From the IMG/VR virus record IMGVR_UViG_3300028584_001242: a stretch of 11,187 bases of DNA; one strand, 5' to 3'. This DNA is from a virus (lineage: Duplodnaviria; Heunggongvirae; Uroviricota; Caudoviricetes). The notes beneath the pieces are model-generated. The model searched no databases and had not been told where the DNA came from. It saw only the letters and a program-made list of their open reading frames with translations. This document shows, piece by piece, positions 2,923-9,875 of this stretch (position 1 is the first letter of the stretch; each line of letters opens with the position of its first letter). The translations under genes were made by a program, and so were the position numbers.

Positions 2923-3387
2923 ATGTTTGAAGACATAGGCATTGATGAAGATGAAGGCAGTATTGAAGGTTATAGGGTGAGTGCAAAAGATGAAAATTAC
3001 AAATTTTTTCTAGCAGATGCAATAGAGAATGATCAGAAAACGCAACATATTATAAGCTTTATGGAAAAAAAAGGGTGTGAAAGAATAACAGTTATAAAAA
3101 ATTTAAATGTGGAACGAGAATCAAGAGGTCAAGGTATTGGAAAAGGTTTATTAGAATCAGCAGTAGATGGTACCCAAGTCGCCATATTAATATCTGACAA
3201 ACATGAAAGTCAAATAAGAAGTTTTGTATTAAATAAGTTTTACGAAAATGCCGACTTTGAAAAAGTTATTAACACATCGACTGGTTATTTAATGTGTTAT
3301 CCAAGTCATGCAGCAAATGAGTTAAAAGAACATTTGAAAGAATGTTTAAAAATAGATAAAAAGAACATAAAAAAAATGAAGATATAA
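2923..3387 (+). CDS. GNAT-family acetyltransferase (154 aa)
   Basis: Acetyl-CoA binding motif A: IKNLNVERESRGQGIGKGLL, followed by KFYENADF resembling motif B. The only well-supported plus-strand gene. AT-rich codons. Confidence 0.85.
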   Translation: MFEDIGIDEDEGSIEGYRVSAKDENYKFFLADAIENDQKTQHIISFMEKKGCERITVIKNLNVERESRGQGIGKGLLESAVDGTQVAILISDKHESQIRSFVLNKFYENADFEKVINTSTGYLMCYPSHAANELKEHLKECLKIDKKNIKKMKI

Positions 3388-3410
3388 AAAAGCCCTCGAA
3401 AGGGCTTTTT
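3386..3410. terminator. Bidirectional intrinsic terminator shared by the GNAT gene and peptide cassette 1
   Basis: A6-GCCCT-CGAA-AGGGC-T5 between convergent genes. Confidence 0.9.
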
Positions 3411-3429
3411 GTTTGTTGGCTTAACCGTG

Positions 3430-3564
3430 TTACAGGTCTTTGCCTTTGTTCAGTTCCGATTCCGCACGTTCCCATGCGGCGTTCTTGTCTTTTTGCTCCT
3501 GAGCTTTCGCCTGAGCATAAGCAGCGTCAATTTCTTGTTGTTTGGTCATAGTAGCTTGAGTCAT
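3430..3564 (-). CDS. Helical microprotein, paralog 1 of 3 (44 aa)
   Basis: Hand translation MTQATMTKQQEIDAAYAQAKAQEQKDKNAAWERAESELNKGKDL. GGAGA RBS, own promoter and terminator, homologous to 6917..7051 and 9671..9811. Absent from the ORF track. Confidence 0.85.
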   Translation of the reverse strand: MTQATMTKQQEIDAAYAQAKAQEQKDKNAAWERAESELNKGKDL

Positions 3565-3598
3565 GGTATCTCTCCAATATTGCTGTTTGTGTGTGGTT

Positions 3599-3627
3599 AT
3601 TATATCTAAAAGTGGATTAATTGTAAA
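3599..3627 (-). promoter_or_regulatory. sigma70-like promoter, peptide cassette 1
   Basis: TTTACA (3627-3622), 17 nt, TATAAT (3604-3599). Confidence 0.8.
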
Positions 3628-3634
3628 GCTTTTT

Positions 3635-4057
3635 TTAACCTAAAAACTGTCGTGTTACTGTCACATATGGGACGCCATCTTTATGCAGTTTTACCACACC
3701 AGTAATCATGTCAGTGCTGATGTCCAAAGCATAAGCCACTAATTCAGGTTTTGACAGATTTTTGATGATGGTATCCAAATCATTTTCCAACAAGTCATGA
3801 ACCATCGCATAACAGTCTAACACTTCTTTATTCTTGAAGTTGCGATTGCCCCGCTGATGACGGATATATTCGCGTTCGCCCATGATGGTAGCCGCGAAAA
3901 TAATTTCATCGTTTACGGCGTAAAAGGGAATCATGAAAAGCGTTGTGGGTGCCATACGTTTACCCAACATACCCGCCAATGTTTCAAAGTTAGTCAACAC
4001 CTTGTTGAAATCAGCAGCAGTGTTAAATTCAATGTTTTCTTGAAGTCGAACTTCCAT
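3635..4057 (-). CDS. Hypothetical protein (140 aa)
   Basis: Clean ORF with AGGTG RBS. No motif recognised. Confidence 0.75.
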   Translation of the reverse strand: MEVRLQENIEFNTAADFNKVLTNFETLAGMLGKRMAPTTLFMIPFYAVNDEIIFAATIMGEREYIRHQRGNRNFKNKEVLDCYAMVHDLLENDLDTIIKNLSKPELVAYALDISTDMITGVVKLHKDGVPYVTVTRQFLG

Positions 4058-4090
4058 TGTTTATCACCTATTTAAACTGAAATGATTGAT

Positions 4091-4519
4091 TTAATTTTTG
4101 TCTTTGCGATGGCTTTGAACAATTCCACGATTGCAATCATTGCGGTTAGCATAAGTTACACGGGTCACACTGGCTTTTTGAAGGTTCTTTTTACGAACTT
4201 CATAATCATGAATCTTATGAACATTTATGATGTGGCTCATCACCGCTGAATTCTGTTCGGTAGCCGTCAATAACTTACCATGACCAGAACGGATAAATTC
4301 TTTGTCACAGATTTTGCATTTAGCATTGTGCAAAGTGGAGACAACAACAGGTTTCAAATCTTCCCGGCGTTGTTTGAAGCTGTTATAAAGATCACGAAGG
4401 TCTTGACCTGACTCACTTGTGCTGTAATAGCCATCCATCATATCCAAAGACGCTTTAAAACCACTCAGCAGTCTTTCAACGTCTTCATTAGTCCAGATAT
4501 GTTCTTGTTTAGTGGTCAT
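4091..4519 (-). CDS. Hypothetical protein with an atypical C2H2-like Zn finger (142 aa from MTTKQ; start uncertain)
   Basis: CKICDKEF ... SHIINVH and a basic C-terminus. The ATG at 4519 has a weak GGAA RBS; the track start at 4579 is possible. Confidence 0.65.
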   Translation of the reverse strand: MTTKQEHIWTNEDVERLLSGFKASLDMMDGYYSTSESGQDLRDLYNSFKQRREDLKPVVVSTLHNAKCKICDKEFIRSGHGKLLTATEQNSAVMSHIINVHKIHDYEVRKKNLQKASVTRVTYANRNDCNRGIVQSHRKDKN

Positions 4520-4645
4520 GATAAAAATTCCGTGTGTTTTCAATGAGAGAAGTATATCAAAAAACGAGTTTATAGGCAACCTATTTTAAAGATTTTTCAG
4601 ATTCATAATAAAAAACACATTTAAAGAAAAAACCACCCAAGTTTT

Positions 4646-8596: not shown

Positions 8597-8650
8597 AACA
8601 ATCTCCTGAATTAGAACACTATTATACCAAATTCATAGATTTTAAGCAAG

Positions 8651-8671
8651 AAAAAAGACCCGAAGGTCTTT
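8651..8671 (-). terminator. Intrinsic terminator
   Basis: Minus strand AGACC-TTCG-GGTCT followed by a T run. Confidence 0.8.
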
Positions 8672-8684
8672 ATTTTTATTCTTT

Positions 8685-9575
8685 TTATTCTGTTTTTTTG
8701 TTAATGTAAAGCTCAACATCAATTTTTTCATTAGGATCAACAGCTCCATGTTGTATCGTATCATCTATATTTATTTTTGTTTCTGTTTCTTGTGGCTCAG
8801 GTTTATATACCAAATCATTTATACGCTCTCTTTCTTGCATGATTTCAGACATTCCATTATCAACAATTTCTTGAATGCTTTCATCATCGGGTTCGAAATC
8901 AGATTGATTTTGAGATTCATTATATTGATTTTCTTCTTCATGCCTTAAATCTGCAAGTAAAAACATATTGTAAACGCATAATAAAGCTATAAGAATAGCA
9001 AAAGAGACATGAAAAATAAAATGGATATTTTTTCTAACAACATTAATGACGGTAAGTAATAATAAATAAATAAATAGAGATATTAATAATGGATGAGTAA
9101 AATAAGTTGTAAAATAAGCCACAAAACTAAATAATAATAGTGATATTAAAATAAAAATAATACTTTTTGTCAAGATCAAATATCGACCAGAGACAAGGTT
9201 GTGATTTTCAATTTTATTCAATTTATCTTTCATTGTTATATTTGATTTTGTAATATTTAAAACTAATAGAAGATATAAGAAATCTTTAGCTGTATAAGCC
9301 AGAATACAAAAACAGCCATAAATCAATAGAGATGTTTCCAGCACTAGCGAATTATTATTAGTAAGAAAAGCTAAAAGAATATTTATAAAAACCAATCCTC
9401 CTAAAATAGCGGATGAAACAATAAGCCAAGAAGTAAGTAATTCTTTTTTATTTTCAATAGATGATAGTTCTGATGTTATTTCTACATATTTTTCCAGTGT
9501 AGTAAGTTCATGCTCATATTTTATTTTATCGACGTTTTCTGTAACTTTTGTATTTTTATTATGAACTATTTTCAT
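8685..9575 (-). CDS. AT-rich multi-pass membrane protein (296 aa, about 5 TM segments, acidic C-terminal tail)
   Basis: Long hydrophobic runs, e.g. WLIVSSAILGGLVFINILLAFL, IIFILISLLLFSFVAYF, LLISLFIYLLLLTVINVV. Line 9061-9120 has 11/60 G+C against 30/60 in line 7381-7440. Confidence 0.8.
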   Translation of the reverse strand: MKIVHNKNTKVTENVDKIKYEHELTTLEKYVEITSELSSIENKKELLTSWLIVSSAILGGLVFINILLAFLTNNNSLVLETSLLIYGCFCILAYTAKDFLYLLLVLNITKSNITMKDKLNKIENHNLVSGRYLILTKSIIFILISLLLFSFVAYFTTYFTHPLLISLFIYLLLLTVINVVRKNIHFIFHVSFAILIALLCVYNMFLLADLRHEEENQYNESQNQSDFEPDDESIQEIVDNGMSEIMQERERINDLVYKPEPQETETKINIDDTIQHGAVDPNEKIDVELYINKKTE

Positions 9576-9630
9576 ATAAGATTGAATGTTAATTAATTAT
9601 AGTATATCAAAAAAATAAAATAAAGAAATG

Positions 9631-9656
9631 AAAAAAGCGACCAGAAGGCCGCTTTT
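9631..9656 (-). terminator. Intrinsic terminator, peptide cassette 3
   Basis: Minus strand GCGGCC-TTCT-GGTCGC followed by T5-6. Confidence 0.8.
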
Positions 9657-9670
9657 ATTTTGTGGTCAGT

Positions 9671-9811
9671 TTAAACCGACGATGGTTTCTGATGTTCCAG
9701 CTCTTTGTCTGCTTGCTTCCAAGCAGCTTCTTTGGATTGACGTTCCTGAGCCTTCAGTTGAGCGTAGGCTTGTTCGATTTCTTGTTCTTTGGTCAGTGCT
9801 ACTTGTGTCAT
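9671..9811 (-). CDS. Helical microprotein, paralog 3 of 3 (46 aa)
   Basis: Hand translation MTQVALTKEQEIEQAYAQLKAQERQSKEAAWKQADKELEHQKPSSV. Same GGAGAAACACC-ATG initiation region as copy 2. Absent from the ORF track. Confidence 0.85.
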   Translation of the reverse strand: MTQVALTKEQEIEQAYAQLKAQERQSKEAAWKQADKELEHQKPSSV

Positions 9812-9846
9812 GGTGTTTCTCCGTTGCTTTCTGTTTATGTAGGATG

Positions 9847-9875
9847 AGTATATCGAAAATTGGGTTTTGTGTAAA
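9847..9875 (-). promoter_or_regulatory. sigma70-like promoter, peptide cassette 3
   Basis: TTTACA (9875-9870), 17 nt, TATACT (9852-9847). Confidence 0.75.

Follow-up and report, generated by a model that had tools for sequence, protein, structure and literature searches.

Dispersed self-contained expression cassettes for an orphan single-helix microprotein in a giant phage-like element

We analysed an 11,187-nucleotide (nt) stretch of viral DNA (the window; IMG/VR record IMGVR_UViG_3300028584_001242, Caudoviricetes), in which a first-pass annotation had picked out three dispersed units, here called u1, u2 and u3, encoding related peptides of 44-46 residues. The units lie where that annotation had placed them, all on the minus strand, and each contains everything it had listed: a promoter, a CA-rich leader, a GGAGA ribosome-binding site, the peptide gene and a terminator (Table 1). 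As had also been described, the -35 element follows closely on the stop codon of the upstream gene, with gaps of 7 nt in u1 (gene 3635-4057), 5 nt in u2 (gene 7120-7860) and 13 nt in u3 (gene 9889-10644); an A-tract upstream of the u1 promoter extends to the stop codon of gene 3635-4057. GGAGA stands six nt ahead of the ATG in every unit, and the hairpin begins about 20 nt past the stop codon of the open reading frame (ORF). Aligned over about 260 nt, the three units have a mean column identity of 82%.

The expression signals are strong, as had been proposed, and equal to any others in the window. A consensus scan of the whole window placed the three cassette promoters among the four best-scoring minus-strand matches, and among terminator matches the three hairpins with their T runs take the first three ranks. 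The promoters have an A-tract, a -35 and a -10 element and lack a TGn element; no stem-loop lies in or beside any of them. RNA folding leaves 67-78% of each leader unpaired, and the message outside the terminator carries no excess of structure (z -0.6 to -1.9). In all three copies a short hairpin forms from the A-A-W..Q-A codons, and looks like a by-product of the alanine codons. The u1 terminator also closes the convergent acetyltransferase gene (2923-3387, plus strand); downstream of the u2 terminator lies an extended -10 promoter (TGCTATAAT, 6830-6822) for gene 6791-6510, and downstream of the u3 terminator a T-rich stretch with the promoter region of gene 9575-8685.

Codon usage supports the idea of highly expressed genes only in part. 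GCT, AAA and GAA, which had been put forward as codons of that type, occur at the same frequency as in neighbouring genes, and thus are not distinctive. CTG, named alongside them, is enriched (75% versus 14% in neighbouring genes), as are ACC (57% versus 26%) and GAC (83% versus 30%), all on small counts. The cassettes are also richer in G+C than neighbouring genes (43-47% versus 38%). Two of the three copies had escaped the ORF track, which is consistent with a 60-residue threshold; only u2 passes it, owing to a spurious upstream TTG start.

Table 1. Features of the three cassettes and of the neighbouring gene pair (window coordinates)
Feature	Coordinates	Strand	Details
u1 promoter	3599..3627	-	-35 TTTACA 3627-3622, 17-nt spacer, -10 TATAAT 3604-3599; 11/12 consensus
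u1 start region and CA-rich 5' leader	3565..3598	-	GGAGA 3575-3571; leader mostly unpaired in fold
u1 coding sequence	3430..3564	-	44 residues (P0001); tail type NKGKDL
u1 terminator	3387..3410	. (listed on both strands)	hairpin 3410-3387 and T run; 10-bp stem, UUCG-type loop; bidirectional
u2 promoter	7086..7114	-	-35 TTTACA 7114-7109, 17-nt spacer, -10 TATAAT 7091-7086; 11/12 consensus
u2 leader	7052..7085	-	GGAGA 7062-7058
u2 coding sequence	6917..7051	-	44 residues (P0002); tail type NKGKDL
u2 terminator	6874..6897	-	hairpin 6897-6874 and T run; within 31-nt block identical to u1
u3 promoter	9847..9875	-	-35 TTTACA 9875-9870, 17-nt spacer, -10 TATACT 9852-9847; 10/12 consensus
u3 leader	9812..9846	-	GGAGA 9822-9818
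u3 coding sequence	9671..9811	-	46 residues (P0003); tail type ELxHQ..SV
u3 terminator	9633..9656	-	hairpin 9656-9633 and T run
Paralogous gene pair, 244 and 246 residues	7120..8596	-	fold without known match

We compared 19 distinct coding sequences, comprising the window copies and their metagenomic relatives. Start, frame and length are preserved in all 19, and the ratio of nonsynonymous to synonymous substitution rates (dN/dS, Nei-Gojobori) is below 1 in each of the 129 pairs for which it is defined, with a median of 0.31 and values of 0.09-0.23 between near-orthologous copies. When u1 is compared with u2 or u3, synonymous sites are saturated. Only the sense frame is open in every sequence. 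One antisense frame is open in 16 of them and broken in u2 among others. Entropy at third codon positions is about double that at the first and second. The check for purifying selection that the first-pass annotation had proposed therefore comes out positive, and this codon-level comparison shows that the microprotein ORF codes for a protein under purifying selection.

Peptides P0001-P0003 share the pattern M-T-x-x-x-[LM]-T-K-x-Q-E-I-..-A-Y-A-Q-..-A-Q-E-....-K-.-A-A-W-..-A, which contains the core motif reported earlier, and T7, E11, A15, Q18 and W31 are invariant across the family. Distant relatives (43-48% identity) retain T-[KR]-E-Q-E-I-..-A-Y-.-Q ... K..AW..A. AlphaFold2, run with the family alignment, predicts a single helix over residues 8-39 (predicted local distance difference test, pLDDT, 82 overall and 89-92 at the centre); the conserved residues from T7 to Q18 are distributed all round it, followed by Q22, K27, A30, W31 and A34. 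The peptides are rich in A, Q, K and E, with a net charge of -1 to -5, a mean hydrophobicity of -0.30 to -0.41 and no hydrophobic stretch. They were said not to be typical type I membrane toxins, and a type I toxin or other small membrane peptide is ruled out by this hydrophilicity and by the lack of a hydrophobic transmembrane helix. An amphipathic or coiled-coil helix was also rejected, as neither the hydrophobic nor the conservation moment exceeds that of shuffled sequences.

Two C-terminal tail types are present, ..NKGKDL in u1 and u2 and ..ELxHQ..SV in u3. Each type is old and conserved, and both usually occur in related genomes. The family was not recognised at first reading, and we also found no significant match for it in any family database searched: there is none in Pfam, NCBIfam or PADLOC, matches in PHROGs (E 0.06 or worse) and among PDB sequences (E 0.5 or worse) are at chance level, and an ESM Atlas features search gave no usable match.

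A word-indexed search of 5.8 billion proteins recovered relatives in six clusters, and a profile search of 1.84 billion representatives gave ten matches, one of them a repetitive chance match and the real ones all 36-71 residues long; the longer relatives have mis-called starts. Further copies came from contig look-ups and from scans of IMG/VR and JGI metagenomes (L-numbers below denote the related metagenomic contigs or contig regions compared with the window). The peptide had no tblastn match in 50,697 phage records or 72,556 plasmids, no family member was found in one genome for each of 185,579 species, the family profile had no match in the jumbo phage RsoM2USA of Ralstonia, and megablast of the window had none in the phage and plasmid collections. 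Among the collections searched, sequence matches thus place the microprotein family only in metagenomes.

Three copies each are present in the window, in L001/L002, in a 678-kb contig, in a 1.86-Mb contig and in a 290-kb IMG/VR record; L040 and L042 have two each, those of L042 in tandem. The earlier description of the family as amplified is therefore borne out, with two or three copies in nearly all related contigs long enough to show them. The L042 genes (4110-4460) are direct repeats 73 nt apart, each with its own promoter and with a terminator after the second copy only. This arrangement looks like a fresh duplication, and illustrates how copies arise. The copy at 91.5 kb in the 290-kb record precedes homologues of the 244/246-residue pair, as u3 does, and the copy at 227.9 kb lies 2 kb ahead of a homologue of a 300-residue gene, as does u2; the 300-residue protein has no match in cultured phages. 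This shared gene order indicates that the positions of the copies relative to their neighbours are ancient.

The cassettes are located at breakpoints of gene-content difference between related genomes. The u3 cassette (9892-9595) and its counterpart in L001 form an island of homology of about 300 bp, with unrelated flanks on both sides. L003 and L004 have no u3 copy at that site, where homology restarts precisely with the T-rich stretch and promoter that follow the terminator, and in L003 the T-rich stretch is present though the cassette is absent. Two genes that abut cassette terminators are missing from relatives: the 296-residue gene that follows u3 and, behind u1, the acetyltransferase gene on the opposite strand.

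Exchange also reaches into the cassettes. L032 and L033 have the coding sequence in common and differ in promoter and leader. Nearest relatives differ by cassette segment: promoter segments follow position, whereas core coding segments and leaders do not. The nearest relative of the u1 core, for instance, is the copy at position 2 in L001, and that of the u3 core is the copy at position 1 in L003. The u2 cassette is a mosaic, with a -10 region and leader, tail and terminator like those of u1 and a core like that of u3, and contains identical runs of 31 nt with u1 and 27 nt with u3 (permutation p about 0.002 each). The conflict between segments, rather than the identical runs, is the stronger evidence for exchange. 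This comparison indicates that the cassettes behave as recombining modules whose copies exchange sequence, and the suggestion of a minimal mobile expression cassette is the part of the original interpretation best supported by the comparative data (island, absence, breakpoints and mosaics). The accompanying suggestion, that the copies had diversified against variant targets, does not fit a core that is under purifying selection in copies that exchange sequence. The pattern is thus concerted and not diversifying, and only the C-terminal tail splits into two types among copies.

For the 244-residue protein of the neighbouring 244/246-residue pair, AlphaFold2 gives a confident model (pLDDT 91) of mostly long helices with small sheets. 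Searches of PDB and the ESM Atlas with the model found no matching fold, and the pair has no family match. A pair of this type stands directly after a microprotein copy in four further lineages, and the order microprotein, 244-like, 246-like is found in the window's lineage, L001, L035, the 290-kb record (at 91.5 kb) and L026, across which the larger proteins are only 22-30% identical. From this gene order, it is possible that the pair is a functional neighbour of the microprotein. The 296-residue gene (8685-9575, minus strand) encodes a multi-pass membrane protein and is inserted between u3 and the 244-residue gene relative to L001 and L035; L003 has two distant paralogs (27-36% identity) in its place.

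Other genes of the region deserve mention in their own right. The acetyltransferase gene is of GNAT type, has a strong promoter of its own (2875-2902, 11/12) and is alone among the sizeable genes of the window in lying on the plus strand. It is absent from L003 and L004 and uses the u1 terminator, and thus looks like a recent insertion. In three lineages (L001:8400-8537, L035:9229-9372 and L026:1353-1487) the position-3 copy of the helical microprotein is immediately preceded by a member of a second microprotein family, of 44-47 residues, extremely rich in Q, N and K and beginning MNTQQ; this second family is absent from the window. A 224-residue protein (206-880, minus strand) has weak matches to the AAA_21 or AbiEii-type ATPase family and to the defence ATPases AriA, PtuA and HEC-01A, which cover only its C-terminal 50-60 residues and its P-loop. 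Positions 2116-2271 fall in the only ORF-free stretch of the window.

The element that carries these cassettes is best labelled a giant phage-like element, and is likely to be a phage. Locally it consists of small co-oriented genes, nearly all without family matches. The 290-kb relative has 35 transfer RNA (tRNA) genes and a T4-type RNA ligase 1 whose best cultured match is in RsoM2USA (40%), and genes for TyrRS, PTH2, thymidine kinase and CinA lie near distant copies. Leu(UAA), Met and Arg(UCU) genes are duplicated among the 35 tRNAs, and ARAGORN also finds two with a CUA anticodon, of the amber suppressor type (L019:19840-19914 and L020:849-923); an ORF-length test of the record yields no evidence for TAG recoding. 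The aminopeptidase gene carried by this relative has 33-46% matches across many phyla, and since these are low and widely spread, no host can be deduced from them.

Contigs bearing the family are large: Ga0308157_10000028 (677,834 bp; L035/L037), Ga0247725_1000001 (1,539,155 bp; L043/L047) and Ga0308158_10000001 (1,859,102 bp; L039/L041). Two copies lie 128,054 bp apart in both the 290-kb IMG/VR "provirus" and the 1.54-Mb contig, and the former is thus a slice of the latter. As to what the contigs of 0.68-1.86 Mb are, huge phages, giant plasmids, chromosomes that contain giant islands and mis-assemblies are all conceivable. Whether the microprotein genes deserve the name "early" depends on the element being a phage, and we use the word only in that presumptive sense.

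The orphan microprotein family is new, and the genetic module that carries it is of a known kind. The closest known kind is the moron or the PeSL-type ORFan cassette. PeSL (promoter-early stem-loop) cassettes carry ORFans in the genomes of T4-type phages, within their hyperplastic regions (Arbiol et al. 2010, PMC2839356; Comeau et al. 2014, PMC4122927). They are defined by a sigma-70-type early promoter, an AT-rich region running from the upstream stop codon and a stem-loop within or beside the promoter; indel and replacement breakpoints lie at these motifs in a T4-type phage genome, and mini-circles are described as well (PMC2839356). Early promoters of T4 itself have UP, -35, TGn and -10 elements (PMC2988021). 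The units described here share with PeSL a strong promoter of the sigma-70 type, set in AT-rich sequence from the upstream stop codon onward, stem-loop terminators between small ORFans, genes that bring their own promoter and terminator, and breakpoints between related genomes at promoter and terminator motifs. However, the PeSL stem-loop stands in or beside the promoter, whereas here a separate intrinsic terminator follows the ORF, with a terminator-then-promoter composite after u2 and u3. PeSL cassettes also carry unrelated ORFans, whereas here one and the same microprotein gene is repeated, in two or three copies between which recombination extends into the coding sequence. Finally, PeSL cassettes belong to T4-type phages, whereas the element here is best described only as giant and phage-like.

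The likeness to morons is comparable. Morons of lambdoid and other phages are autonomous promoter-gene-terminator units inserted between two genes, and are usually single-copy conversion genes expressed from the repressed prophage, with a phenotype in the host. The cassettes likewise consist of a single gene with its own promoter and terminator, are present or absent between relatives (u3 versus L003) and differ in composition from their neighbours. In contrast to morons, they are multi-copy, kept across deep divergence, and set within co-oriented genes that mostly have similar signals. The protein itself recalls very small helical early phage proteins that are encoded in single copy, such as lambda CIII, which binds FtsH, and T7 Gp2, which binds RNA polymerase. 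Size range, helical character and early host-type promoters are similar, yet PDB and Pfam searches gave no sequence similarity for the microprotein, and the helix of CIII is amphipathic whereas that of the microprotein is not.

We favour, at slightly better than an even chance, the interpretation that the cassettes are autonomous single-gene units for overproducing a hydrophilic one-helix protein of 44-46 residues, with dosage copies, firing by the host polymerase and portable flanks. The near-consensus, sigma-70-type promoters of this giant phage-like replicon would be fired by host RNA polymerase once the DNA is in the cell, each unit acting as an autonomous transcription unit for large amounts of the protein. 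Several copies would add dosage, and could raise the protein to the level needed for stoichiometric binding of an abundant partner, encoded by the host or by the element. The two conserved tail types may give copies partly different partners or fates, a partial specialisation. The shared promoter, leader and terminator flanks would serve as portable homology in the manner of PeSL cassettes and morons, which would explain why copies are mosaic and why neighbouring genes are shuffled.

Several observations weigh against parts of this interpretation. The hydrophobic moment of the helix (0.09-0.21) is not above that of shuffled sequences and the conserved residues are not clustered on one helix face (p 0.26); thus, the sequence offers no obvious binding face. 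The identical runs in u2 may owe part of their length to constraint, acting on the terminator and the conserved core of the peptide, and not to recent exchange. In the copy at L001 15368, and in the third copy of both L037 and L041, the terminator is missing and the unit runs straight on into the gene that follows, so a monocistronic layout is not obligatory. With respect to the element, the 1.54- and 1.86-Mb contigs exceed 841 kb, the size given for the largest huge phage in a preprint (bioRxiv 10.1101/2025.02.27.640493). Searches of the 290-kb relative for Terminase_6C and DNA polymerase B gave no match, and a Gp23 search had no match anywhere and is hence uninformative about a capsid. The 290-kb relative also has no ORF over 666 residues; stop-codon recoding, considered as a cause of the missing long ORFs, finds no support in ORF lengths.

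Other explanations must be weighed against the same data. Promoter, leader and terminator are as well conserved as the ORF, with 94% identity between the leaders of L001 and the distant 290-kb record, as might be expected if the unit were a non-coding repeat or a gene for a small RNA and the ORF a matter of chance. The preserved frame, the dN/dS values and the third-position variation nevertheless refute a non-coding repeat, the units have no Rfam family at the gathering threshold and there is no excess of RNA structure outside the terminator, so we give this explanation almost no credence. An attenuator, in which translation of a leader peptide governs read-through of the hairpin into downstream genes, would account for a short ORF with a terminator about 20 nt later and for the genes downstream of u2 and u3, but is close to refuted. 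The u1 terminator faces the convergent acetyltransferase gene and thus has nothing downstream to regulate, the downstream genes have promoter elements of their own, the fold contains no alternative anti-terminator pairing, and the whole 40-residue sequence is conserved as a protein in distant relatives. A structural or protective role for an abundant protein, be it in the virion, in the nucleoid or as a hydrophilin-like protectant, would suit the extreme hydrophilicity, the A/Q/K/E-rich composition, the lack of a hydrophobic face and the several gene copies. We nonetheless consider it very unlikely: T7, E11, A15, Q18 and W31 are conserved in a sequence-specific manner unlike that of low-complexity protectants, the negative net charge argues against nucleic-acid coating, and host-type promoters among small accessory genes would be an unusual site for virion genes.

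Two further functions have somewhat more in their favour. The microprotein could be a small early inhibitor of host immunity (anti-CRISPR-like, anti-restriction or similar), kept in multiple copies for variant targets. Its small size, strong expression signals and patchy presence at individual sites would fit, as would its place in a hypervariable block of genes without known function and the weak Acb1-like and faint Lar-like matches a few kb away in relatives. Against this stand the lack of a match to any anti-defence or other family, a core that is under purifying selection and homogenised between copies with no diversification seen, and the retention of the family over deep divergence in every related lineage examined. 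Such retention is more like that of a core accessory function than of a swap-in counter-defence gene, and an anti-defence role appears unlikely to us, though far from negligible. Alternatively, the microprotein may be a partner or regulator of the 244/246-residue pair, for example an inhibitor or assembly cofactor, since gene order is kept despite the low identity of the larger proteins. However, the microprotein gene and the pair have a terminator between them, the 296-residue gene intervenes in the window, other genes adjoin u1 and the relatives in the positions of u1 and u2, and genes for proteins of about 240 residues near copies in L032-L034 have no tblastn match to the window pair. A complex prediction for the 244-residue protein with u3 scored 0.00, but its controls were not run and it counts neither way. 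We regard a partnership with the pair as improbable.

The overproduction of a one-helix protein from autonomous cassettes, which we prefer to these alternatives, can be extended more speculatively. The microprotein could be a dosage-amplified factor with which a clade of giant phage-like replicons, represented by megabase-scale contigs, hits an abundant host machine, while the same unit supplies portable homology for the shuffling of accessory genes. Translation would be the most plausible machine because of the load of tRNA, RNA-repair and aminoacyl-tRNA genes in relatives. We would give this extension only a small chance of being right as a whole.

Gene callers routinely overlook microproteins shorter than 50 residues, and two of the three copies here fall below a 60-residue threshold. 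The family is a clean and well-supported case of such a gene: rare, under selection, multi-copy and equipped for very high expression. Additionally, the cassettes provide a concrete example of promoter and terminator modules as recombination joints outside classical T4-like phages. The family resides in poorly understood giant uncultivated elements with many tRNA genes and, if its partner were found, it would indicate what such elements must control first in their host.

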